This document shows, one piece after another, positions 4,380 to 24,166 of a stretch of 64,000 bases of DNA (position 1 is the first letter of the stretch; the number at the start of each line of letters is the position of its first letter). The notes beneath the pieces are model-generated. The model was not told the origin of the DNA, ran no database searches, and worked only from the letters and a program-made list of their open reading frames with translations. Origin of the DNA: Pseudomonadota bacterium (lineage in GTDB: Bacteria; Pseudomonadota; Gammaproteobacteria; Burkholderiales; Burkholderiaceae_C); contig JBPOIP010000030.1 in the NCBI GenBank assembly GCA_052034395.1, positions 25,753 through 89,752 of the forward strand. The letters are read 5' to 3'. The position numbers were made by a program, and so were the translations under genes.

Positions 4380-6083
4380 TTGAACATCCCGACCCCAGCC
4401 ATCGTCACCCAGGCAGGTGCCCGTCGTTTGCCGCGCTGGGCTTTGCTGTTGCTGTGCTGCGCCTACATCTTGACGGGGTTTATTGGCAGGGAAGCTTGGA
4501 AGAGCGACGACATGGCGGCGCTGGGCTACATGACAGAACTGGTGCAGGGCAGCTCAAATTGGCTTGCGCCAACCCTTATGGGTGCAGCCACGGACAACCC
4601 CGCCGTGCTGCCCTACTGGATGGGTGCCTGGGCCATGCAGATCGCTCCCGAATGGGTTTCACCTGATTTCAGCGTGCGCATTCCCTTTGGAGTATTGCTC
4701 GGGCTTGCCATGGTTGCGACCTGGTATGGAACCTACTTCCTCGCGCGCGATCCACTGGCCCAACCGGTCGCATTTGCCTTTGGCGGCGAAGCACTGCCCG
4801 CTGACTATGCCCGGGCCATGGCGGATGGTGGGCTCCTGGCATTCATTGCCTGCCTGGGCCTGGCACGGTTATCGCATGAGACAACACCCGCCCTTTCGCA
4901 ACTCGGATTCTCCGCCCTTGTCTTTTACGCCATGGGCGCACTGCCGTATCGGAGAAATGGCGCAATCGTAGCGATCGTCGCCGGACTTTTGGGCTTGACC
5001 CTGTCAGGCGCACCCGCGATGGCGTTGGTGCTGGGCCTTGGCAGTGCAGCGCTACACTATTTCGATCGATCCAGCGACAGCACGCAAGGACAGAATCCAC
5101 AACAAATTGGAACTCAGAGCGCGCTGATTGTCCTAGCGACCCTGCTGGCAATAGCGGTTGGTATTTCGCTGGATTTGGTACGCTGGAAAATCCAGCTACC
5201 CCGTGCAGTATGGGCCGACTGGAGTGGGCATATCCAGCTCATGATCTGGTTTACCTGGCCTGCCTGGCCGTTGGCCCTGTGGACACTATGGCGTTGGCGC
5301 CATCAACTGTTCATCAGAAAATTCAGGCGCCACATTGCGTTGCCCGCTTGGTTTGTTTCGGTCTGCATCGTTGCAACATTGACAACCGGATCACCGGATC
5401 GCAGCTTGCTTCTGGCGCTTCCAGCCATGTCCACACTGGCGGCTTTTGCACTTCCGACCCTGCAGCGCCAGGTTGGCGCACTGATTGATTGGTTCACACT
5501 GCTGTTTTTTTCCGGCTGTGCATTTGTCATTTGGGTCGTGTGGGTCGCCATGCAGACGGGCGTTCCAGCTCAGCCGGCTGCAAACGTGAGCCGGCTTGCG
5601 CCTGGATTTTCGCCAAGTTTTTCGTTTATTGCTTTCGGCGCTGCATGCGTGGCCACGTTTGCCTGGGCTTGGCTGGTCAAATGGCGCGTGGGGCGGCATA
5701 GAGCAGCAATCTGGAAGAGTCTGGTATTGCCTGCGGGCGGCGCAACCCTAAGCTGGTTGCTTCTAATGACCCTGTGGATGCCTTTGCTGAACTACGCGCA
5801 AAGTTACACAGCACTGGTTCAGCGCACGGTGCAGCATATGGAGGTAACGGGGTGCGTCGAAACATTGGGACTGGGACAAGGACAAATCGCAGCTTTCCAG
5901 TTCTATGGAAAGCTCCAGCTCAAAACCATGCAAGCCCAACCGCAGTGCCCGTGGCTGCTGGTTGAACCCCTGTCAGACCTGTCGGCGCCTGCCGGTCTGG
6001 ACACTGCCGCGTGGTCACTGGAAACACTCATTGAACACCCGGCGAATGCAGGCGAATCTGTTCTGCTTTTCCGGCGAAACTGA
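4380..6083 (+). CDS. ArnT/PMT-like (GT-C fold) polytopic inner-membrane protein
   Basis: 567 aa, TTG start, many hydrophobic segments; N-terminal REAWKSDD resembles the acidic loop of ArnT-like enzymes. Confidence 0.6.
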   Translation: MNIPTPAIVTQAGARRLPRWALLLLCCAYILTGFIGREAWKSDDMAALGYMTELVQGSSNWLAPTLMGAATDNPAVLPYWMGAWAMQIAPEWVSPDFSVRIPFGVLLGLAMVATWYGTYFLARDPLAQPVAFAFGGEALPADYARAMADGGLLAFIACLGLARLSHETTPALSQLGFSALVFYAMGALPYRRNGAIVAIVAGLLGLTLSGAPAMALVLGLGSAALHYFDRSSDSTQGQNPQQIGTQSALIVLATLLAIAVGISLDLVRWKIQLPRAVWADWSGHIQLMIWFTWPAWPLALWTLWRWRHQLFIRKFRRHIALPAWFVSVCIVATLTTGSPDRSLLLALPAMSTLAAFALPTLQRQVGALIDWFTLLFFSGCAFVIWVVWVAMQTGVPAQPAANVSRLAPGFSPSFSFIAFGAACVATFAWAWLVKWRVGRHRAAIWKSLVLPAGGATLSWLLLMTLWMPLLNYAQSYTALVQRTVQHMEVTGCVETLGLGQGQIAAFQFYGKLQLKTMQAQPQCPWLLVEPLSDLSAPAGLDTAAWSLETLIEHPANAGESVLLFRRN

Positions 6084-11689: not shown

Positions 11690-12733
11690 TTACTTGAAGG
11701 CTATGGGCTTGCCAGAACCGTCCTTGATCTCGCCCCAGGCCTTTTCGATGGCGGCGATCACGGGCTTTGGCATGGGCACATAGTCCAGGTCTGCAGCGGT
11801 CTTTTCGCCGTTGGCATATGCCCAGCTAAAGAACTTCAACACTTCGGTCGCATTGGCAGGCTTGTCCTGCTTCGTATGCATCAACACAAAGGTGGCTCCA
11901 GAAATTGGCCAGGCGTCCTTGCCGGGCTGGTTTGTCAGAATCTGATAAAAAGACTTGGCCCAATCCGCACCAGCGGCCGCGGCTTTGAACGAGTCATCTT
12001 CCGGCTTGACGAAATTGCCGGCAGAGTTCTGCACGGTGGCATAGGTCATTTTGTTTTGCTTGACATAGGAATACTCTACGTATCCCATGGAATTTGGCAG
12101 GCGACCCACAAACGCTGCAACGCCCTCATTGCCTTTGCCACCAGCACCAACCGGCCAGTTGACGGCAGTACCCTCGCCTACCTTGGACTTCCACTCCGGG
12201 CTAATCTTGCTCAGGTAGTTGGTAAAGATAAAGGTCGTACCGGAACCATCAGCGCGGCGAACCTGCGCAATGGCGGCGTCTGGCAAAGCCAAAGTCGGGT
12301 TCAGGGCCTTCAGGGCCGGGTCATTCCAGCGCGAAATCTTGCCCAAGTAGATGTCAGCCAAAAGGGTGCCTGTCAACTTCAGTTGTCCAGGCTCAATACC
12401 CTTGACATTGATCACCGGAACAACGCCACCCATCACCGTTGGAAACTGCATTTGCCCTTTGGTCTTCAGCACTTCATCTGTTTGCGGCATGTCCGAAGCG
12501 CCAAAGTCCACTGTATTGGAGTCGATCTGCTTGATACCGCCACCTGAGCCGATGGACTGGTAATTGACCTTGACCTTGGTCGCCTTGTTGTAATCAGCTG
12601 CCCATTTGGAATAGATCGGCGCCGGGAAAGTCGCACCGGCACCGGTGATTTCCTGGGCGCCAGCGGCACCCGCAAAACCCAATGTTGATACGACCGCCAG
12701 GGACAGGAGTGGGAGTTTGAAAGTGATTCGCAT
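11690..12733 (-). CDS. pstS: Phosphate-binding protein PstS
   Basis: Signal peptide, GAGATFPAP, YQSIGSGGG, RADGSGTT. Confidence 0.97.
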   Translation of the reverse strand: MRITFKLPLLSLAVVSTLGFAGAAGAQEITGAGATFPAPIYSKWAADYNKATKVKVNYQSIGSGGGIKQIDSNTVDFGASDMPQTDEVLKTKGQMQFPTVMGGVVPVINVKGIEPGQLKLTGTLLADIYLGKISRWNDPALKALNPTLALPDAAIAQVRRADGSGTTFIFTNYLSKISPEWKSKVGEGTAVNWPVGAGGKGNEGVAAFVGRLPNSMGYVEYSYVKQNKMTYATVQNSAGNFVKPEDDSFKAAAAGADWAKSFYQILTNQPGKDAWPISGATFVLMHTKQDKPANATEVLKFFSWAYANGEKTAADLDYVPMPKPVIAAIEKAWGEIKDGSGKPIAFK

Positions 12734-14846: not shown

Positions 14847-16355
14847 ATGCCAATGGGAACTCGCCTGGCCGCTGTCGATTTGGGCTCGAACAGCTTTCGT
14901 CTGGAAATTGGGCGCATTGAGCACGGCGCCTTTCAACGCACGGAATACCTGAAAGAAACCGTCCGCCAGGGCGGGGGCCTGGACGAAAACCGCAATCTGA
15001 CGCCCGCCGCCATGCAAAACGGCTGGGACTGCCTGGCCCGGTTCGGCGAGCGCCTGGCCGGGTTTCAGCCTGGCGAAGTGCGGGCAGTGGCGACTCAAAC
15101 ACTGCGTGAAGCACGCAACCGCGATGCTTTCTTGCTGCGGGCAAACACCATTCTGGGCTTCCCTATCAACGTCATTTCGGGTCGTGAGGAAGCACGGCTG
15201 ATTTACCAGGGTGTGGCGCAGATGCTGCCGCAGTCCGACGAACGCCGGGTTGTCATTGACATTGGCGGGCGGTCAACCGAACTGATTCTGGGAAAGGGAT
15301 CAACGCCCCTGGTCATGGAATCGTACCGGGTGGGCAGCATTGCATGGTCAAACCGCTACTTCCCCGATGGTCAATTCACCAAAAAATCTTTCGCCATTGC
15401 GGAAATTGCCGCGAAGGCCGTTCTGGACGAAGCACTGGACGCTTACCATCCAAGCCTCTGGGATACAGCATACGGCTCTGCCGGAACGGTCAGTGCCGTT
15501 GCAGACGTGCTTGTTGCGAGTGGATGGCCAGCCGGGTCCGTGACGCAGGATGGTCTGGATTGGCTGATGGACAAGCTGATCGCAGCGCAAAGCACCGATC
15601 GGCTGCGACTGGCCGGCATGCGCGAAGACCGCAAGGCCATCATTGGCGGCGGCGTGAGTATCGTGCGGGCACTATTCAGCCTGTTAGGCATCAAAACCTT
15701 GCATCAGGCAGCCGGCGGCTTGCGCCACGGCCTGATCTGCGATTTGCTGGGTGCGTCCAGTCAGGATGACGATTTGCGCGCCCTGACCGTTCAGCGGCTG
15801 GCCAGCAAGTTTGGCGCCGATGCGACCCATGGCGAGCGCGTTGGCAAAGTCGCCGCCCAGTTGTTTGGGCAACTGGTGGCCTCACCCAACAAGTTGGCAC
15901 CTACGCAAGCCAGCCGACTCTTGCAGAAGCTGCAATGGGCCGCGCAACTGCACGAGATCGGCAGCCACATTTCACACAGCGACTACCACAAGCACGGCGC
16001 CTACATTCTCGACAACGCAGATGCCATGGGGTTTTCACTCTCGGAAATGCATCGCCTGAGCGTTCTGGTATTAGGGCACCGCGGCAAGCTGCGCAAGATC
16101 GAAGCGGAACTGGAAGAGCCCGACCTGGCAGCACAGCTTGTAGCGCTGCGCCTGGCAGTCATTCTGAGTCATGCCCGGCGCGACCCGGACCTGAATGGGC
16201 TGACCCTCACGCACACCGATGCGCAAGGGCGCAATATGCAATTGCGATGCCGTGCCGGATGGGCGGAAGCTTTTCCGCAATCAGCCTACCTGTTGCGTGA
16301 AGAAGCGCAGGCCTGGCAGAAAACTGCCTGGTCACTCGAAGTAACAGGTTGTTAA
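14847..16355 (+). CDS. ppx: Exopolyphosphatase (Ppx/GppA family)
   Basis: AAVDLGSNSFRL, ISGREEARL, DIGGRSTE, AAQLHEIG HD-like region. Confidence 0.93.
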   Translation: MPMGTRLAAVDLGSNSFRLEIGRIEHGAFQRTEYLKETVRQGGGLDENRNLTPAAMQNGWDCLARFGERLAGFQPGEVRAVATQTLREARNRDAFLLRANTILGFPINVISGREEARLIYQGVAQMLPQSDERRVVIDIGGRSTELILGKGSTPLVMESYRVGSIAWSNRYFPDGQFTKKSFAIAEIAAKAVLDEALDAYHPSLWDTAYGSAGTVSAVADVLVASGWPAGSVTQDGLDWLMDKLIAAQSTDRLRLAGMREDRKAIIGGGVSIVRALFSLLGIKTLHQAAGGLRHGLICDLLGASSQDDDLRALTVQRLASKFGADATHGERVGKVAAQLFGQLVASPNKLAPTQASRLLQKLQWAAQLHEIGSHISHSDYHKHGAYILDNADAMGFSLSEMHRLSVLVLGHRGKLRKIEAELEEPDLAAQLVALRLAVILSHARRDPDLNGLTLTHTDAQGRNMQLRCRAGWAEAFPQSAYLLREEAQAWQKTAWSLEVTGC

Positions 16356-16781: not shown

Positions 16782-18086
16782 TCACCGCGTGGCACGGGGC
16801 CGCGACTGCCGTGTCTCAAAATGCTTAAGCGCGAAATAAGTCAGAGCACCCACCAACACCGCGCCCAGCAAAAAGCTTCCAAAAGCCAGGGGCCACGGAA
16901 CGCCCTGGGTCATCATTGAAAACTCTGACATACCTCCCACCCCGGCCAAAATGTTGATGGGCATGAACACCACACCAAACACGGTCAGCTGGTTGACCCG
17001 CTTGTTCTGGTTGATGTTGATAAAGCCAATTGTTGCGTCCATCAGAAAATTGATCTTGTCGAACAGAAACGACGTGTGACTGTTCAAGGATTCAATGTTC
17101 TGCAAGATCTGCCGGGCATCGTCAATCTGGCCAGGCGACAATATCTTGCAGCGAATCAAGAAAAGGATGGCGCGTTGCGTGTCCAGAATATTGCTCCGGA
17201 TGCGGCCATTCAAATCCTCTTCCTCGGCAATGTCACCCAGTATGGCGGCCGCCTCCCGGTCGCTGATGGCTTCACTCAAGACCTGACGCCCCACCTTGCC
17301 CAGTGTGGTGTAGATGTCCTCCAGTGAATCGGCCGAGTACTCAACATCGGCGCCGTATAGATCCATCAGCAAGTCGTTGCAATCCGACGCGTAGCCTGGT
17401 TGTGTGGCGGCTCGTCGGCGCTGCAACCGGAACACCGGCAGGTCTTCGTTGCGAAGGGAGAACAATATGCCGGCATGGACGATGAAGACCACCGGCACGC
17501 TGCGCGAATTGCCCTCGCGGTCAAGCAGGAAGTTGGAGTGCAGATAGACATCACCGTTGGCTTCCACGTGGAACCGTGTGCTGACTTCCAGATCGGTGAT
17601 TTCGCCGGGATCGGGCAGTGCCAGACCAAAATGGGCACCTACAAAGCTGCGCTCGGCTCTGGTTGCGTTGATGAGATCGATCCAGACCGGTCGAATACCC
17701 TCGAGATCTTTGCGGCTGTCGATGGCAACCTGTTGCAGCCGGCCGTCCCGCACTTCAAAAGCACTGATCTGTGTCGCATCAAATGCCGGCTCACGGTTAC
17801 CAACCAGCCGCTCCCGGCACGCGTCAGACACCTCCCACAGGATTTCGTTCTGACGACCTTCAGGCACCTGCTGCCAGAACAGGGCGGCGTCCGGGTGCGG
17901 CAATGCCTCCAGAATGGCACCGATTTCTTCGGATGGTGTTTGGGCGATGAAGTTCTGCAACTCGGCTGAGTGCTGTTTTTGCACCAGCGTTTCAATCATC
18001 TCGTGGCGCGGCATGGTTTGCCCGTGGATCATCCCCTCCACGCGCCGCTGCTTTCGCAGCATCTCCGAGACTTTTTCCATCGACAT
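16782..18086 (-). CDS. corA: CorA-family Mg2+/Co2+ transporter with an MgtE_N-like N-terminal extension
   Basis: WIDLINAT, LEVSTRF, FLFDKINFLMDATIGFININQN, two C-terminal TM helices with GGMSEF; N-terminal EIGAILEALP...EILWEVSD; GGAG RBS before ATG 18086. Confidence 0.85.
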   Translation of the reverse strand: MSMEKVSEMLRKQRRVEGMIHGQTMPRHEMIETLVQKQHSAELQNFIAQTPSEEIGAILEALPHPDAALFWQQVPEGRQNEILWEVSDACRERLVGNREPAFDATQISAFEVRDGRLQQVAIDSRKDLEGIRPVWIDLINATRAERSFVGAHFGLALPDPGEITDLEVSTRFHVEANGDVYLHSNFLLDREGNSRSVPVVFIVHAGILFSLRNEDLPVFRLQRRRAATQPGYASDCNDLLMDLYGADVEYSADSLEDIYTTLGKVGRQVLSEAISDREAAAILGDIAEEEDLNGRIRSNILDTQRAILFLIRCKILSPGQIDDARQILQNIESLNSHTSFLFDKINFLMDATIGFININQNKRVNQLTVFGVVFMPINILAGVGGMSEFSMMTQGVPWPLAFGSFLLGAVLVGALTYFALKHFETRQSRPRATR

Positions 18087-18237
18087 CCTGATTGCTCCGC
18101 TGGTTGCTTGTTGTCCATTGCATGAATAGACCAAGGAAAGGTGCCTACTGCCTGATTACATGCAATTGCAACGCAATGTCACATATTTGAAACCAGGCCC
18201 AAACACAATCGATACATTCCACTGTAGAAGCTTGTTC

Positions 18238-18498
18238 ATGTACAAAACCGACACCTCAGAAATTTCAGGTACTGGCTTGCGCTACGTATCAAAACAAGGC
18301 GGATCACCATTTCAGGGCGCGGGGAGCACAGGCGAAACAATCAGCTGCATCAAGTGCGGCAAACATCGGCTGAGAACGCGCGGATCCGTCAAACGCTACC
18401 TGAATTCGTTGCTGTTCTTCTGTTTTGACTGCAAACCAGAAAAGCCTGCCGTCATTCAGAAGATCCGTCCATCGGATCCTTCAACGATTTCCGTTTAG
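18238..18498 (+). CDS. Small hypothetical protein with C4 Zn-finger-like motif
   Basis: 86 aa; SCIKCGKHR...FFCFDCK; GLRY..K.GGSPF N-terminal block. Confidence 0.65.
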   Translation: MYKTDTSEISGTGLRYVSKQGGSPFQGAGSTGETISCIKCGKHRLRTRGSVKRYLNSLLFFCFDCKPEKPAVIQKIRPSDPSTISV

Positions 18499-20410
18499 CC
18501 GGTTCTTTTCCGCTCCAGGACTGCAACGCCCGAAGCAGTGAGCGCTTTTTCACCTGATGGCGACCCATGCGCCGCAAGATATCGTCCAGGGTACGGATCG
18601 CATCGGTTATGTACGGCCCTTTGTTCAGCATCACGCACTCGGCCCGAACACCCAGACCCGCATCCGATATCTCAGCCCGCGACGGCACGCCAGTCTTGGC
18701 CAGCGTCTCCAGAACCTGGGTCGCCCAGATCACAGGCATGTGGGCCGCTTCAGCGCACCAGAGTATCTCTTCCTGCACTTCGGCCAGACGCTCATAGCCA
18801 CATTCCACAGCAAGGTCGCCCCGGGCGATCATCACACCCGCACAGCCGCCTGACATGGCCGCCAGCATGAGTTCAGGCAGATTCTCGAAACCCCGGATCG
18901 TTTCAATCTTCAGGACAATTCCAATGTCATTGCGCCCCAAGCGCGCCAGGTGTTCACGCAACTGGTACACATCATCCGCGCGCTGCACAAAGGAAAGCCC
19001 CACCATGTCCGCCTCCTTCACAACGGCTTCAAGGTCCTGCAGGTCTTTCTCGGTCAATGCAGGCAAGTCCAGTTCGCTGTCGGGGAAATTGATGCCTTTG
19101 TCTCCGGTCAGCTTTTCACCCCCTTCGCGCGCCTGCGTAATCTCGACTTCCAACCCGTCCTGCGCAACCTTGCGGATGACACCACCAATCTTGCCGTCGT
19201 CAAACCACATGCGCTCACCAACACAGACCTGATCAATGACTTGTGGCAACGTGCAGGCAATATGCGCCATCTCCCTGCTTACGCTGCCGGAAACCCCGTC
19301 AACCGCAGCAGCATTTCCAAGACCACCGCGGGTCACCCGGATGTGATCGCCCAGATGGAGATGAAGCGATCCGGGCAAGCTTTCGATTTGCCCTGGCAAA
19401 GTCACGCGCCACTTTTTCCCTTCGTGCCCGTGAATGGTCAATTGTGTTTCGGGCGTGAGATAGGCCGTCTGCACGCTCTCGGCAACCGCACTGGTTTCAT
19501 CACGCTGAACCACCAGCAAATGCCGCTTGGCGCCTCGGGCGTCCAGAAAGTCAATTTGCGTTCCCGCCTCAAGGCGTGCCAGCCATTTGCTTTCGACGCC
19601 AATACATCCGTCCACGTTTGGCATGCGCGCCACTGCTGGATCTGAGACCATTCCCAACCGGTAGGGCTTGTAAGGACGGCCAAACTCGTCTTTCTGGGGA
19701 CGCATGCGCAGCACGGCCGGCTTTGGCGTCACGTCCCCGGTTCTGATTTTTGGCCCTCCCAAGTCCATGAGAATGCGCACCTTGCGTTGCACCGACTTGG
19801 CGGCACGGCGCACATTCTGTGCAATGGCCGTCCAGGCTTGGGCATCATCGTGCGCGCAGTTGATACGTGCAATGTCCATTCCCGCCTCAACCAACTCCCG
19901 GGCGACGTGGTAGTCCGTGGCGGCGTTGGAAGGCATTGTGACCATGATGCGCACCGACCGCCCAGAGGGGCTGCTTCCCAGCAAATCGACGCTGTGATCC
20001 TGAAGCAAGCGCCGGCTGCTGACGCTTCCCGCCGGTTCCTCTGCGGACTTGTCCAGCCAATCCTGGCCCGTGAGGCAATGCAGTATTCCCAGAACTTTGT
20101 CCAGATTGGCCAACACATGGGACTCAGAACGTCCCAGTGATGAGAGTCCCAACCAGGCCAGTTGTTCCTGCAATGGCCTGAGGTCATGCACACGCAGCGC
20201 CAGGTAATGGATGAGGTTTCGCGCACTCACCTGATACTTTTGGGACACGCGCGAAAGTGCGGTATGCATCTGCCCTTCACGTGCGTGCATCGACTGTCGC
20301 AACAGCTGAAGCTCTTCAATGAGCGAAAGACAGACCTTCTCGCGCGAGACGGTCGCCGATGGCTTGCTTGAAACGGTGCGTTTGGGCTGACGTGGTTTGC
20401 TGTTGATCAT
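18452..20410 (-). CDS. pyk: Atypical long pyruvate kinase-family protein
   Basis: RIMVTMP, ARINCAH, GPKIRTG, KGINFP, KIET, VMIARGDLAVE, ATQVLE, RAEISDA. Confidence 0.85.
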   Translation of the reverse strand: MINSKPRQPKRTVSSKPSATVSREKVCLSLIEELQLLRQSMHAREGQMHTALSRVSQKYQVSARNLIHYLALRVHDLRPLQEQLAWLGLSSLGRSESHVLANLDKVLGILHCLTGQDWLDKSAEEPAGSVSSRRLLQDHSVDLLGSSPSGRSVRIMVTMPSNAATDYHVARELVEAGMDIARINCAHDDAQAWTAIAQNVRRAAKSVQRKVRILMDLGGPKIRTGDVTPKPAVLRMRPQKDEFGRPYKPYRLGMVSDPAVARMPNVDGCIGVESKWLARLEAGTQIDFLDARGAKRHLLVVQRDETSAVAESVQTAYLTPETQLTIHGHEGKKWRVTLPGQIESLPGSLHLHLGDHIRVTRGGLGNAAAVDGVSGSVSREMAHIACTLPQVIDQVCVGERMWFDDGKIGGVIRKVAQDGLEVEITQAREGGEKLTGDKGINFPDSELDLPALTEKDLQDLEAVVKEADMVGLSFVQRADDVYQLREHLARLGRNDIGIVLKIETIRGFENLPELMLAAMSGGCAGVMIARGDLAVECGYERLAEVQEEILWCAEAAHMPVIWATQVLETLAKTGVPSRAEISDAGLGVRAECVMLNKGPYITDAIRTLDDILRRMGRHQVKKRSLLRALQSWSGKEPAKRKSLKDPMDGSSE

Positions 20411-20541
20411 CGTGCGATGATGGCACACGCATGCTGCAAATTTGTGACAAAGCGGTCGAGCAGTTCACCGCAGCAACCACGATTTGCTGTCAGATACAAA
20501 CCAGTTGGACGTTCAGGCCGCCCGGACAGAATTTTCCGGTT

Positions 20542-20757
20542 TCACGCCGGATGGTTGGTCAGGGCCTTCCAGCGATGATTGAACGATCGGCCAATTTCAC
20601 CGTGTCGGTGCACCGACCCACAACTGGTGGACCGGGAAACTTTCTCCGAGTAGGACTCAATTTCCGCCTGCAATTGCAGGACATGGGGATGATTCGCACC
20701 GAGCGCCACACCCAGTTTGTGGTGGAGCCGCTTTAAATTGCCAAGATGCTTCAGCAT
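20542..20757 (-). CDS. Small hypothetical protein, 71 aa
   Basis: GAGG RBS before ATG; MLKHLGNLKRLHHKLGVALGANHPHVLQLQAEIE reads as an amphipathic helical hairpin. Confidence 0.55.
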   Translation of the reverse strand: MLKHLGNLKRLHHKLGVALGANHPHVLQLQAEIESYSEKVSRSTSCGSVHRHGEIGRSFNHRWKALTNHPA

Positions 20758-20923
20758 ATATACCTCTGTGCACGTCAATCGCACCTGCGTGCAATCGATT
20801 GAACTGAAATCTGAGTGACCAGCCGTAGCATATACGGGTTTACCCTTAATCCTCACTTCCAATGAAAGATTTCAGTCGGCCACGCACTGTCGAAGACAGG
20901 ATGGCTCATTTAGACACTGTTTT

Positions 20924-20952
20924 GTGACAGATCGATGAAAAATTCGTGACCT
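20924..20952 (-). promoter_or_regulatory. Triple Pho-box-like repeat
   Basis: Minus strand AGGTCAC-GAAT-TTTTCAT-CGAT-CTGTCAC with 11-bp period; weak -10. Confidence 0.45.
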
Positions 20953-21098
20953 GCGAGACGGGCCACTCGATGACAACGGGCATTTCCGGGCAAATCTCCG
21001 CGAAGCATGCACAACCAGGGAGAGAGCGAGTCACAAAAAATTGCTTCAAAGGTCAATTGAATATAAACTGTATATACCGTTTATTTTCAAGGTCCTAT

Positions 21099-21551
21099 AT
21101 GACAACCGAAGCTTCCAAACCCGTCAAACCGTTGACAACCCCAGCAAAAACTGCACCCGAAGCGGCTGTCAAACCAGCAGCCAAGTCCGTAAAGGTCGTG
21201 GCATCCAAAGTGGCATCCAAGATGGCAAAAACCCCCACCACCAAGCCCAAAGCCGTGCCTGCACCCAAAGTAACGACCAAATCGGCAAGCGCACCACAAG
21301 CCGCCAAAGACGCCAAAGTCAAGAAGCCCAAAATGGTTCGCGACAGCTTTACGTTCCCGAAAGACGAGTATGCAGTGCTGGACTTGCTGAAGCTGCGCGC
21401 GGCCAAGCTGGGCAGTCCGGTGAAAAAAACCGAGTTGCTGCGCGCCGGTGTAAAGGCCATTGCGGCTATGGCAGACGATGCATTCCTGCTCTCACTGCGC
21501 GCTGTGCCCAGCCTCAAGACAGGCCGCCCTGCCAAAAGCAAGTCGGCGTAA
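21099..21551 (+). CDS. Lys/Ala/Pro-rich histone-H1-like tail plus VRDSF-type (RHH-like) C-terminal domain
   Basis: 18 Lys in the first 78 aa; C-terminal KMVRDSFTFPKDEY...KKTELLRAGV...KTGRP. Confidence 0.8.
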   Translation: MTTEASKPVKPLTTPAKTAPEAAVKPAAKSVKVVASKVASKMAKTPTTKPKAVPAPKVTTKSASAPQAAKDAKVKKPKMVRDSFTFPKDEYAVLDLLKLRAAKLGSPVKKTELLRAGVKAIAAMADDAFLLSLRAVPSLKTGRPAKSKSA

Positions 21552-21558
21552 GGCACAC

Positions 21559-22020
21559 TTACATCAAGTCAGGCGTCTGGACCGTCACCACCACGGTTTG
21601 CCCGGTGGCGTCGCGCTCACGGTAGCGCAGCCACCATACTGCCCCTTTCTTGACAGCGCATTCCGATGCGCTCAAACCCAACAAGCTTGAAACAGTCTGT
21701 CCCAGCGTGGGTTGATGGCCCACGACCAGCACACAGCCTTTGGCGTGTGGCCATTGGACCAACTCCAGCAACTGGTCTGCGGCCCCCATTGGGGCAATCA
21801 CCGGGTTCAATTTGAACTTTCGCCCCAAAGCCAGCGCCGTCTGCTCCGCACGGCGTGCGGGGCTCACCCATATGCGTGTGCTGTCTGGCAACTGGCGGTC
21901 CAGCCAGGCCGCCATGCGAGTGGCCTGCTTTTCGCCACGCGGGGTCAGCGCCCGGAGCATGTCGTCACTGTCGGCTGTGCCTTCCACGGCCTCTGCGTGC
22001 CGCCACAAAATCAGGTCCAT
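21559..22020 (-). CDS. sixA: Phosphohistidine phosphatase SixA
   Basis: LILWRHAEA, SPARRAEQT, LVVGHQPTL. Confidence 0.92.
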   Translation of the reverse strand: MDLILWRHAEAVEGTADSDDMLRALTPRGEKQATRMAAWLDRQLPDSTRIWVSPARRAEQTALALGRKFKLNPVIAPMGAADQLLELVQWPHAKGCVLVVGHQPTLGQTVSSLLGLSASECAVKKGAVWWLRYRERDATGQTVVVTVQTPDLM

Positions 22021-22034
22021 CGTTCGCTCTCCGT

Positions 22035-24128
22035 TCAGGCCTTCTCAACGTCTGCGTAACGCGCCATCAGTGCAACCTGGGCACCATGCAATGGGGTCTT
22101 TCCATCTCCCTGGAAGCGCCGGTATTTGCCGTCTGCACCCAGATCCCATGCGTCAACGCCATCGTGCAGGTAGGCCACCAGACACTCGTCAACCAGTCGC
22201 TGGCGTTGGACCGGGTCGGTCACGGGCCACGCCAGTTCCACGCGACGCACCATGTTGCGGTTCATCCAGTCGGCACTGGAGAGGTAAAGGTCTTCGTTAT
22301 CGCCTTCACGGAAATAGAAAACCCGCGAGTGCTCCAGAAACCGGCCAATCACCGAACGCACCCGAATGTTGTCAGTGTGCCCTGGCACCTGTGCGGGCAG
22401 CATGCAGGCGCCGCGCACAATCAGGTCGATCCGCACACCCTGGCGACCAGCCCGCATCAAACTGTGAATCAGCGCTTCGTCGGTCAGCGAGTTCATTTTG
22501 GCAACGATACGGGTAGCTTTGCCCCGGCTTGCTGCAGCGCCCAGTGCATCAATCCTTGCAATCATGTTGCGGTGCAGGTTGAAGGGTGCAAACCACAACT
22601 TGCGCAACCGCGGCAAACGACTTTGGCTTGCCAGATGCACAAACACATGCTCCATATCGGTTGTGAGCGCCGTGTCAGCTGTGATATGGCTTACATCGGT
22701 GTAAAGGCGTGCCGTGCGCGGGTTGTAATTGCCCGTCGACAGATGACCATAGCGTTTGAGGTTCTTGCCCTCGCGCCGCGTGATCAGCATCATCTTGGCG
22801 TGGGTTTTGAGGCCCACCACGCCATACAGCACCTGCGCTCCAATGGATTCGAGCATTTCGGCCCAGTTGATATTGGCTTCTTCGTCAAAGCGGGCCTTTA
22901 GCTCCACCACCACGGTAACTTCTTTGCCCAGACGCACGGCTTCGCGCAGCAGATCCATCAATTCGGAGTCGGGGCCAGTGCGGTAAATGGTTTGCTTGAT
23001 GGCCAATACATTCGGATCATTCACCGCTTCACGCAAAAGCCCCAGCACCCCATCAAAGCTCTCAAAGGGCTGGTGAATCAGAATGTCGCCCTGCTTCAAT
23101 TGCTCAAAAATGCTTTGTCCATTTGCCATTTGAGCAGGGTAGGACGCACGGTACGGTGTAAAACACAGGTCCGGGCGGTCAACCAGGTCAATAAGCTGGG
23201 TCAATCGCACCAGGTTCACCGGACCTGCCACGCGGTACAGGGCTTTGGCAGGCAAATCAAACTGTTTGAGCAAGAAATCAGACAGGTACTCGGAACAACC
23301 CGCCGACACCTCCAAGCGGACCGCCTGCCCGTAATGGCGGTGAACCAGCCCCTGACGCAGGGCCATGCGCAGGTTTTTGACATCGTCTTCGTCCACGGCC
23401 AGATCAGAATGCCGCGTCACACGGAACTGCGAGAACTGCCCCACCGAGCGCCCCGCAAACAGCTCAGCCAGGTGCGCGCGGATGATGCTCGACAGTGACA
23501 CGAACAGCAGGCGGTCACCCGAAACCTTGGCAGGCATGCGGATCAGGCGCGGCAGCACGCGCGGCACCTTGACGATGGCAATTTCATTCTCGCGACCAAA
23601 CGCATCCCGCCCGCCCAGACGCACGATAAAGTTCAGCGACTTGTTGGCGACTTGCGGAAACGGGTGGGATGGGTCCAGACCCACCGGAATCAGCAACGGG
23701 CGTACTTCCCGCTCGAAATACTGCTTGACCCAGTGGCGTTGCGCCGCATTGCGTTCGCCGTGGGAAATGATCTTGATGCCAAGTTTCTCAAACGCCGGCA
23801 TCAGTTTCTCGTTGTAAAGCGTGTATTGCCGCTCAACGATAGCGTGCACCGTTGCCGACAATCGCTCGAACGAGCCTACCGAAAACAGGCCCTTTCGTTC
23901 TTTGGCCTGATTGGCGGTCAGGTGCGGCTCGGCACGCACTTCAAAAAACTCGTCAAGATTGGATGAAACGATGCACAGATAGCGCAAACGCTCCAGCAGC
24001 GGAACATCATCGCGAACAGCCCAGTCCAGCACACGCTCATTGAAGGCAAGAATGCTGTGGTCGCGGTCCAGCAGATCGGGCGCCTCCAGGGGAGCCTGCA
24101 ATTTGGGGTTGCGAAGAAATGACAACAT
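22035..24128 (-). CDS. ppk1: Polyphosphate kinase 1
   Basis: SSNLDEFFEVR, SHPFPQV, IKQTIYRT, ELKARFDEEANI, KTHAK, GRFLEHSR, SSADWMNRN. Confidence 0.97.
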   Translation of the reverse strand: MLSFLRNPKLQAPLEAPDLLDRDHSILAFNERVLDWAVRDDVPLLERLRYLCIVSSNLDEFFEVRAEPHLTANQAKERKGLFSVGSFERLSATVHAIVERQYTLYNEKLMPAFEKLGIKIISHGERNAAQRHWVKQYFEREVRPLLIPVGLDPSHPFPQVANKSLNFIVRLGGRDAFGRENEIAIVKVPRVLPRLIRMPAKVSGDRLLFVSLSSIIRAHLAELFAGRSVGQFSQFRVTRHSDLAVDEDDVKNLRMALRQGLVHRHYGQAVRLEVSAGCSEYLSDFLLKQFDLPAKALYRVAGPVNLVRLTQLIDLVDRPDLCFTPYRASYPAQMANGQSIFEQLKQGDILIHQPFESFDGVLGLLREAVNDPNVLAIKQTIYRTGPDSELMDLLREAVRLGKEVTVVVELKARFDEEANINWAEMLESIGAQVLYGVVGLKTHAKMMLITRREGKNLKRYGHLSTGNYNPRTARLYTDVSHITADTALTTDMEHVFVHLASQSRLPRLRKLWFAPFNLHRNMIARIDALGAAASRGKATRIVAKMNSLTDEALIHSLMRAGRQGVRIDLIVRGACMLPAQVPGHTDNIRVRSVIGRFLEHSRVFYFREGDNEDLYLSSADWMNRNMVRRVELAWPVTDPVQRQRLVDECLVAYLHDGVDAWDLGADGKYRRFQGDGKTPLHGAQVALMARYADVEKA

Positions 24129-24166
24129 ATGCACGCCTTGACTATGACACAGGAGTGAAGAATTGT

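Follow-up and report, generated by a model that had tools for sequence, protein, structure and literature searches.

Polycationic tails and polyphosphate granules

Only a few bacterial proteins are validated partners of polyphosphate (polyP) granules: AlgP, Hfq and the CHAD phosins (PMC9239181, PMC11894788). AlgP (AlgR3) of Pseudomonas aeruginosa combines a structured domain with a long, disordered polycation rich in Lys, Ala and Pro (K/A/P) and has been proposed to act as a DNA-polyP bridge (PMC9239181, PMC11894788); its KPAA tail is required for the spacing of polyP granules, and its puncta depend on the polyP kinases (PMC9239181). PhaF and PhaM carry similar tails and serve polyhydroxyalkanoate (PHA) and polyhydroxybutyrate (PHB) granules (PMC11894788, PMC3783465), while in Escherichia coli the lysine-rich disordered regions of YihI and RNase R bind polyP (PMC12345225). 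Here we describe a gene with a comparable layout in a 64,000-nt stretch of DNA from a Burkholderiales bacterium (contig JBPOIP010000030.1, positions 25,753 to 89,752; hereafter the window). The gene occupies positions 21099-21551 on the plus strand, from ATG to TAA, and encodes a protein of 150 residues, P0001, which consists of a lysine-rich tail and a small conserved domain that resembles the ribbon-helix-helix (RHH) fold. From the sequence and by analogy we put a probability of roughly 45% on the reading that P0001 and its relatives are autoregulated DNA anchors whose polycationic tails bind polyP, a logic akin to that of AlgP, PhaF and PhaM built on a different domain.

The initial annotation of the window described a disordered polycationic tail like that of histone H1 or AlgP joined to a small folded domain of the DNA-binding type, an architecture that the present analysis supports, and its account of the AlgP precedent agrees with the source (PMC9239181). 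In AlgP a C-terminal tail of ~25 perfect KPAA repeats is joined to a folded part that is predicted to be an alpha-helical coiled coil of 124 residues; the family of P0001, by contrast, has an N-terminal, irregular tail (78 residues in P0001, shorter than in AlgP), an RHH-like domain of ~60 residues, a KTGRP arm and a specific operator, and its gene, unlike that of AlgP, is placed with ppx and ppk1 on either side. Homology in sequence to AlgP, PhaF or PhaM was not detected. PhaF of Pseudomonas and PhaM of Ralstonia eutropha resemble the family in pairing a specificity module with a K/A-rich, polyanion-binding tail, and PhaF is also a regulator. In PhaF and PhaM specificity comes from a phasin domain or from PhaC-binding regions, and both are encoded in pha clusters, whereas the family protein has a DNA-binding-type domain and belongs to a polyP and phosphate cluster.

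A second set of relevant systems is found among the RHH repressors. MetJ (with its 8-bp metboxes), omega, ParG, Arc/Mnt and CopG act on short repeats about one helical turn apart and regulate their own synthesis, and both ParG and omega possess a disordered N-terminal tail. The family resembles these repressors in a predicted strand with alternating polar residues followed by helix, G-turn and helix, as well as in repeated, near-palindromic units in its own promoter; it differs from them in a helix A that is ~3 residues longer, an extra third helix, the KTGRP arm and a polycationic tail of 40-200 aa, and the RHH models of Pfam do not detect it.

A family of hypothetical proteins in the Burkholderiales

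A search with residues 76-150 returned 1,797 proteins at E<=1e-3, all of them 'hypothetical' and none with a Pfam domain, and a profile search of 1.84 billion cluster representatives yielded 2,672 clusters (50% identity) at E<=1e-3. The family has no Pfam or NCBIfam model and is annotated as 'hypothetical' only, and no published description of it was found in the literature, including the work on BpH1/BpH2 and on Accumulibacter. Named genomes that carry the gene belong to Rhodoferax, Polaromonas, Acidovorax, Limnohabitans, Curvibacter, Hylemonella, Ramlibacter, Simplicispira and Rhizobacter; order-wide it is present in 79 of 401 genomes, which represent 54 of 177 genera and ~25 GTDB families and include Ferribacterium limneticum. 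The gene is chromosomal and single-copy, and its inheritance across the order is vertical. For the comparisons below, 80 named Comamonadaceae loci and 60 order-wide loci, +/-8 kb, were collected, and these 140 loci were screened with phosphate and lipid gene queries only.

Conservation is high over the C-terminal ~72 residues, which follow the consensus KKPKLVRDSFTIPKxEYxVLDxLKxRAAKLxxPVKKSELLRAGIKALAAMSDxAFLAALxAVPxIKTGRP, and in nearly all of the best 150 of the 2,672 clusters the domain reaches the C-terminus or stops a few residues short of it. In P0001 the folded conserved domain, delimited by invariant columns and by AlphaFold, spans residues 79-138 (21333-21512, plus strand). It starts with an extended strand segment, MVRDSFTFP (residues 79-87), in which R81, D82, S83, T85 and P87 are invariant, and the invariant residues continue with K88, E90 and G117 (61-80 sequences). 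Beyond the helices lies a flexible arm with the motif K-T-G-R-P (residues 140-144; 21516-21530, plus strand; predicted local distance difference test (pLDDT) score about 54). Within the same set of sequences T141, G142, R143 and P144 are invariant and K140 is more than 90% conserved, and the motif is retained in distant families. The G-R-P core, the basic flanks and the flexible, low-pLDDT segment (K-T-G-R-P-A-K) are features of an AT-hook; with T-G-R-P in place of the canonical R-G-R-P the arm is AT-hook-like only, and a contact to the minor groove is predicted for it.

Conserved octamers as a candidate operator at the promoter

The clue to the operator was a peptide, NDINCIY, that recurs in the translations of over-long open reading frames (ORFs) upstream of the gene. 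An array with the consensus AAACGATATAAACTGTATATACCGTTTAT lies upstream of the gene in 62/80 Comamonadaceae loci; its unit, GTATAWAC/GTWTATAC, is a near-palindrome present in 3-4 copies per array, 9 bp apart. In the window the operator (21061-21086) comprises three octamers with a 9-bp period, namely ATATAAAC (21061-68), GTATATAC (21070-77) and GTTTATTT (21079-86). A -35-like hexamer, TTGCTT (21041-21046, plus strand; the family consensus from an alignment of 62 upstream regions is TTGAC), is followed at a spacing of 17 nt by a -10-like hexamer, TAAACT (21064-21069, plus strand), whose position inside the operator is conserved; this assignment of the -10 element rests on the comparison between genomes, and a consensus promoter scan did not call it. 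The array extends over the -10 box and the probable start of transcription and ends just 5' of the ribosome-binding site AAGG (21089-21092, plus strand), which precedes the ATG by 6 nt and recurs as an AAGGA-like motif at the same place in relatives.

The operator stands alone in its genome. A position weight matrix (PWM) derived from the relatives gives the window site a score of 39.3; the next site in the 4.55-Mb genome scores 21.8 and falls within a kinase coding region. Two-unit arrays, with up to 2 mismatches allowed, occur in the window's genome solely at this promoter and at one LexA box, and in four further Comamonadaceae genomes all two-unit matches are the gene's own promoter. The association extends to other families, where in ~50/60 loci no site of the 16-kb locus, whichever its strand, matches the PWM better than one immediately 5' of the gene. 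R81, S83 and T85, which would be expected to contact DNA on an RHH strand, are invariant wherever the octamer is conserved, and the octamer is absent from the one clear paralogue, a divergent copy (5260-5721, plus strand, of locus L015; the second copy in genome G019) in which the strand reads R-G-S-F-A and KAARP replaces KTGRP. This paralogue has an Arg-rich N-terminus instead of a K/A/P tail and is flanked by genes for a histidine kinase and a Lon protease. Being both unique in the genome and conserved, the operator points to a sequence-specific, self-regulating DNA binder, and on this comparative evidence we regard sequence-specific binding with autorepression as quite probable.

Other interpretations of the element were considered and set aside. 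An RNA hairpin does not fit the commonest variant, in which GTATATAC stands beside TATAAAC and disrupts the pairing without compensation, nor the position of the predicted -10 box inside the element. None of the LexA, Pho-box, Zur, BirA or PsrA-type consensus sequences fits the octamer. A Pho box for the 150-residue gene itself was not found: the sole Pho-like site (TTTTCATCGATCTGTCAC, 3 mismatches; 20924-20941) lies ~100 nt 5' of the -35 hexamer on the minus strand, upstream of, and on the same strand as, a small divergent ORF (20542-20862).

Pho-box-like sites (<=3 mismatches) do recur near the promoter, in 14/62 loci versus ~2 expected, at 30-100 nt upstream of the operator (e.g. in L023, L026, L067 and L071) and always on the opposite strand, where they probably serve a divergent Pho-regulated neighbour; they could also influence the gene's promoter. 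Their enrichment is one of the points in favour of a dedicated transcription factor for the adjacent polyP and phosphate-starvation genes (ppk1-sixA, ppx and lipid remodelling), in which the tail would merely raise the affinity for DNA. Such a factor would also agree with the sequence-specific operator and the RHH-like domain, and in the family-level lineage f29 the operator sits in the divergent intergenic region between sixA and the gene, where it could serve both. We nevertheless find this alternative improbable, given that the window's genome contains no second operator and none upstream of ppk1, sixA or ppx, that the Pho-like boxes without exception occupy the opposite strand, and that a large tail of conserved composition would be left unexplained.

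Arrays of the octamer also occur away from the gene in a few genomes. Four genomes of the f10 lineage have in-phase arrays of 8, 11, 6 and 8 units, with the sequence GTWTAWAC and a 9-bp period, directly upstream of chromosomal parA (L192 ~2283-2354, L193 ~2330-2428, L194 ~1372-1425 and L197 ~2341-2412, in genomes G139, G252, G381 and G178, respectively), in the order rsmG, array, parA-parB. G139 has in addition a 3-unit array before an HU gene (L187 ~2014-2040). Neither type of array was found in the window's genome or in the 19 others examined. If the family protein binds the parA arrays, it would assemble at an origin-proximal, centromere-like site in some lineages.

The neighbourhood of ppx, sixA and ppk1

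In the window the gene runs head-on into sixA-ppk1, as the initial annotation had correctly noted: its stop codon (TAA, 21549-21551) is separated by 7 nt from that of a sixA-type histidine phosphatase gene (21559-22020, minus strand), which reaches the cut-off of the NCBIfam model TIGR00249 (75.3 bits versus 74.5), and behind sixA follows ppk1, encoding polyphosphate kinase 1 (22035-24131, minus strand; alternative start possible at TTG 24284), with all four PP_kinase Pfam domains. The exopolyphosphatase gene, ppx, lies upstream on the same strand as the gene (approximately 14862-16322, plus strand; tblastn, 49% identity over 495 aa). Usually the order is ppx > gene > < sixA < ppk1, with the gene between the polyP-degrading and the polyP-making enzymes. 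An insertion of a corA-like channel gene and a pyruvate-kinase-like gene follows ppx in the window's genus, whereas in most other Comamonadaceae ppx is directly adjacent; in Ramlibacter terrae the upstream region of the gene abuts ppx directly.

Genomic association with polyP genes had been proposed as a check on the initial annotation, and the outcome is strongly positive and spread over several arrangements. Among the 80 Comamonadaceae loci, 59 have a convergent sixA-ppk1 pair within 1 kb, 40 have ppx adjacent upstream on the same strand, and 71 contain at least one of ppx, sixA and ppk1. Half of the order-wide loci (30/60) have ppk1, ppx or sixA within 8 kb, when about one locus would be expected by chance according to our rough estimate (three polyP loci x 16 kb in a genome of 2-7 Mb). 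At least six arrangements occur, including <sixA|gene><ppk1, ppx>gene>olsB>plcP and ppk1>sixA>gene>corA. The first of these is that of the f29 lineage (7 loci; L122, L123, L125, L126, L156-L158), in which the gene has a divergent sixA at 189-329 nt on one side and a convergent ppk1 at 21-94 nt on the other and so separates two genes that elsewhere adjoin. The f10 loci have ppx upstream and olsB/plcP downstream, all on the same strand; in f18, ppx is 1.5 kb downstream; and in f44, pstS is divergent. In a metagenome-assembled genome (MAG; L100) the order plcP-like > ppk1 > sixA > gene > corA/zntB-like runs in one direction, with gaps of 91 and 27 nt, and is followed by a convergent ppx. In genome G018 the gene adjoins a glycosyltransferase gene and sixA-ppk1 is located elsewhere. 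Since the polyP genes stay while the upstream flank varies freely, the link exceeds inherited synteny, and as judged from these gene orders it is more than a matter of inherited position.

A disordered tail of constant composition

The tail of P0001 (residues 1-78; 21099-21332, plus strand) is a disordered K/A/P/T polycation with 18 K, 0 R, 1 D, 2 E, 17 A, 11 P and 10 T and a net charge of +15. In the full-length AlphaFold model it has pLDDT values of 53-58 and no secondary structure, as against about 90 for residues 88-135. The counts of 18 Lys and 3 acidic residues, the single KPAAK and the 12-bp tandem reported in the initial annotation are all correct by sequence; the tandem, GTGGCATCCAA(A/G) at 21198-21221 (plus strand), encodes VASK-VASK and is recovered by Tandem Repeats Finder with a period of 12, 1.9 copies and a 100% match. 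The long disordered K/A/P region with few acidic residues that marks AlgP/PhaF-type tails is found here. Regular tandem repeats of the KPAA type are absent from the tail, which has the one KPAAK and the duplicated VASK, and the tails of relatives are irregular. The 12-bp duplication suggests that the tail, like that of AlgP, evolves by repeat slippage.

This composition does not arise by chance. Among 135 homologues the pooled tails contain 20.5% K, 25.7% A, 13.7% P and 3.8% D+E, with a median net charge of +17 and a median length of 84 aa (range 10-199 residues). Sequence and length vary and composition is constant. In one locus (L150, genome G081) the N-terminus has just 10 residues and the K/A/P tail is C-terminal, ~70 aa after KTGRP, which indicates that the position of the tail is interchangeable; members of the Acidovorax type possess another basic tail, a short one. 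With a constant composition and neither sequence nor position conserved, what is selected would seem to be a disordered polycation linked to the domain.

The chemistry of the tail and the neighbours of the gene together lead us to favour polyP, by a narrow margin, as the physiological partner of this chain. Through such a tail the protein might instead tether or regulate a different polyanion or granule, be it RNA, after the fashion of PhaF as a translation activator in P. aeruginosa, or PHB, after PhaM and an Hc2-like protein on Herbaspirillum granules. K/A-rich proteins are abundant in PHB granule preparations of a betaproteobacterium (PMC3783465), and the disordered region of PhaF binds RNA (PMC12818456). 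The conserved neighbours here, however, are genes for polyP, neither Pfam nor NCBIfam reveals a phasin or any further granule-binding domain in the protein, and no pha genes appeared among the ORFs read or the neighbours screened, where no search was aimed at them; such a partner seems quite improbable to us.

The fold of the conserved domain

AlphaFold predicts helices at residues 88-103, 110-122 and 126-135. The strand-helix-helix pattern noticed in the initial annotation matches the first two, and the third follows. When the domain is modelled alone, an extended segment precedes helices at 16-31 and 38-50 (model numbering) with a pLDDT of 84, and helix A, a 6-residue G-turn and helix B follow the extended segment in this monomer model, as one would expect of an RHH protein in monomeric form, where the strand has no partner until the dimer is made. 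In the strand, V-R-D-S-F-T-(I/F/M)-P, the alternating R, S and T are invariant and the F and I/F/M between them are hydrophobic. Such alternation separates DNA-facing from core-facing residues in Arc, MetJ and CopG.

When the family profile (139 sequences) was aligned by hhalign with a reference profile of 24 bona fide RHH_1 sequences gathered from related genomes, the score was 16.6 over 38 columns (P=0.006), whereas 39 decoys, made by shuffling the columns of that alignment, scored 8.8 +/- 1.6 (maximum 13.8). The match, weak but not random, runs in register from the strand through helix A and the G-turn to helix B, at an HH-suite probability of just 6%. An approximate Mnt sequence aligned in the same register (P=0.028). 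Judging by the in-register match, the R-x-S-x-T strand with its invariant residues, the helix prediction and an hhalign score above that of the decoys, we consider an RHH-like fold likely, with membership short of demonstrated. The RHH assignment of the initial annotation is supported in part only and finds no backing in the Pfam RHH_1 model or in Foldseek, to which we return below. A reading of the domain as SAP/HeH (helix-extended-helix) was rejected, its sole hint being a weak match to the SAP domain of Ku70 (E=0.97). There is also no match to Pfam Linker_histone, the winged-helix globular domain of H1; the likeness to H1 is one of tail composition only. Combining the fold with the arm, it is somewhat likely that P0001 acts as an RHH-like dimer whose KTGRP motif makes an AT-hook-like minor-groove contact in the AT-rich operator.

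A disordered N-terminal tail, an RHH-like domain and tandem repeats upstream are also the layout of ParG/omega-type centromere-binding proteins and type II antitoxins, RHH proteins that bind such repeats in their own promoters, and the long arrays before chromosomal parA in four genomes add to the resemblance. The gene is, however, monocistronic, chromosomal, single-copy and vertically inherited across the order. No partner ATPase, toxin or co-repressor gene was seen for the family protein, and no adjacent ParA-type ATPase or toxin is encoded in the window or in the four relatives that were read ORF by ORF, the wider screens having been made with the phosphate and lipid queries. A role of this kind strikes us as very improbable indeed.

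A possible link between polyphosphate granules and the nucleoid

As an autoregulated, polyP-binding anchor, P0001 would be a small, probably dimeric, sequence-specific DNA binder composed of an RHH-like domain, an AT-hook-like KTGRP arm and a cationic K/A/P tail. Like MetJ, omega or ParG on their repeats, the domain would occupy the octamers cooperatively as one dimer on each unit and would thereby repress its own transcription. The tails would bind a polyanion, for which the placement of the gene suggests polyP, and on the nucleoid the protein could serve polyP granules as a tether or a coat, much as AlgP would for polyP and PhaF and PhaM for PHA and PHB. A granule-to-nucleoid adaptor of the AlgP type is a tentative proposal that we draw by analogy. 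More speculatively still, polyP might sequester the protein and relieve autorepression, so that its supply would track the polyP load. The logic would be that of PhaR/PhbF, a repressor of its own promoter that is sequestered by the storage polymer, PHB (mentioned in PMC3783465); the fold and the polymer differ, and titration by polyP is hypothetical and, in our estimation, unlikely. The most far-reaching version would see the family as a polyP-granule organiser of the entire Burkholderiales: dimers on GTATAWAC arrays, at the gene's own promoter and, in some lineages, at the 6-11-unit arrays next to the origin-proximal parA, would form a centromere-like platform, the tails would nucleate or tether polyP so that granules are inherited with the chromosome, and polyP would titrate the protein off its operator as a polyP-sensing switch. 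So extended a scheme is a long shot.

Several observations weigh against an autoregulated DNA anchor for polyP. Some other factor could in principle bind the operator, and K/A/P tails also bind to DNA, to RNA and to preparations of PHB granules. With regard to the fold, Pfam, NCBIfam and PHROGs gave no meaningful match for the protein or for 80 relatives (among 80 family members there was one RHH_1 match at E=0.16 and one VapB match at 0.029), and scans with PF01402 in 41 genomes (E<=0.001; in the window's genome also E<=0.01) found other loci only, never the family gene. A Foldseek comparison with PDB and BFVD returned nothing with E<0.9 and left the RHH fold unconfirmed, the second-ranked PDB match being the VapB RHH antitoxin 3h87_C at E=2.4, and sequence searches of PDB with the single protein and with the profile gave noise only. 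As for the neighbourhood, about half of the 60 loci from across the order lack any polyP gene within 8 kb (f6, f25 including Ferribacterium, f36, f57 and f59), and the usual convergent orientation to sixA-ppk1 means that the genes are not co-transcribed. Five genomes of the same genus, mostly small (2.2-3.1 Mb; G002, G006, G011, G015 and G020), have kept ppk1 and lack the family gene, which is thus not required for polyP synthesis.

The loci without polyP neighbours and the loss of the gene without loss of ppk1 speak at the same time for a general, H1-like nucleoid protein that regulates itself, which is common among nucleoid proteins, and has no specific polyP function, its position near ppx and ppk1 being a frozen accident. 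The tail chemistry is that of DNA-binding proteins of the H1/AlgP/Hc2 type (PMC9239181), and the octamer arrays before parA and the HU gene in another family suggest targets related to the nucleoid. What makes this alternative rather unlikely in our view is that the ppx/sixA/ppk1 neighbourhood survives at least six rearrangements in many families with the other flank changing freely, and that a non-specific nucleoid protein would not need one operator of high specificity.

Organisation of the window around the gene

The gene and its neighbours form part of a phosphate and polyP supercluster. The order in the window is pstS (11702-12733, minus strand), ppx, the corA-like gene and the atypical pyruvate-kinase-like gene (together 16782-20428, minus strand, between ppx and the 150-residue gene), a small ORF, the gene itself, sixA and ppk1; after ppk1 come a glycosyltransferase gene and plcP-like and olsB-like genes for lipid remodelling. 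The small ORF (20542-20862, minus strand), which is divergent from the gene, encodes up to 106 aa, likely from a shorter start at MLKHLGNLKR, and is kept at 44-63% identity in close relatives.

Downstream, an intrinsic-terminator scan predicted no terminator at 21552-21558 between the gene and sixA, and the two transcripts may overlap in antisense. The gap between the family gene and sixA ranges from 2 to ~250 nt in relatives, so that the overlap is not a conserved feature. A longer ORF of 201 aa, starting from GTG at 20946, was rejected as the gene product: it runs through the operator and promoter, and the homologues begin at the ATG behind the ribosome-binding site; M1 is invariant in the full-length family alignment.

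Implications for phosphorus storage in the Burkholderiales

Beyond what the initial annotation had described, the gene has an octamer operator, an invariant KTGRP motif and a usual position between ppx and sixA-ppk1. With a defined operator of 26 bp, DNA binding, autoregulation and the possible titration by polyP become directly testable. Quite apart from polyP, more than 2,600 clusters now constitute a predicted DNA-binding family without a domain model but with a candidate recognition sequence. By sequence and analogy its members look like adaptor-type proteins, in which a tail resembling that of H1 is combined with a specificity module of the DNA-binding type. While AlgP is a Pseudomonas story, this family would be a candidate for a whole order, including wastewater and freshwater bacteria that take part in phosphorus cycling, and it is a good candidate for a link between their polyphosphate stores and the chromosome.

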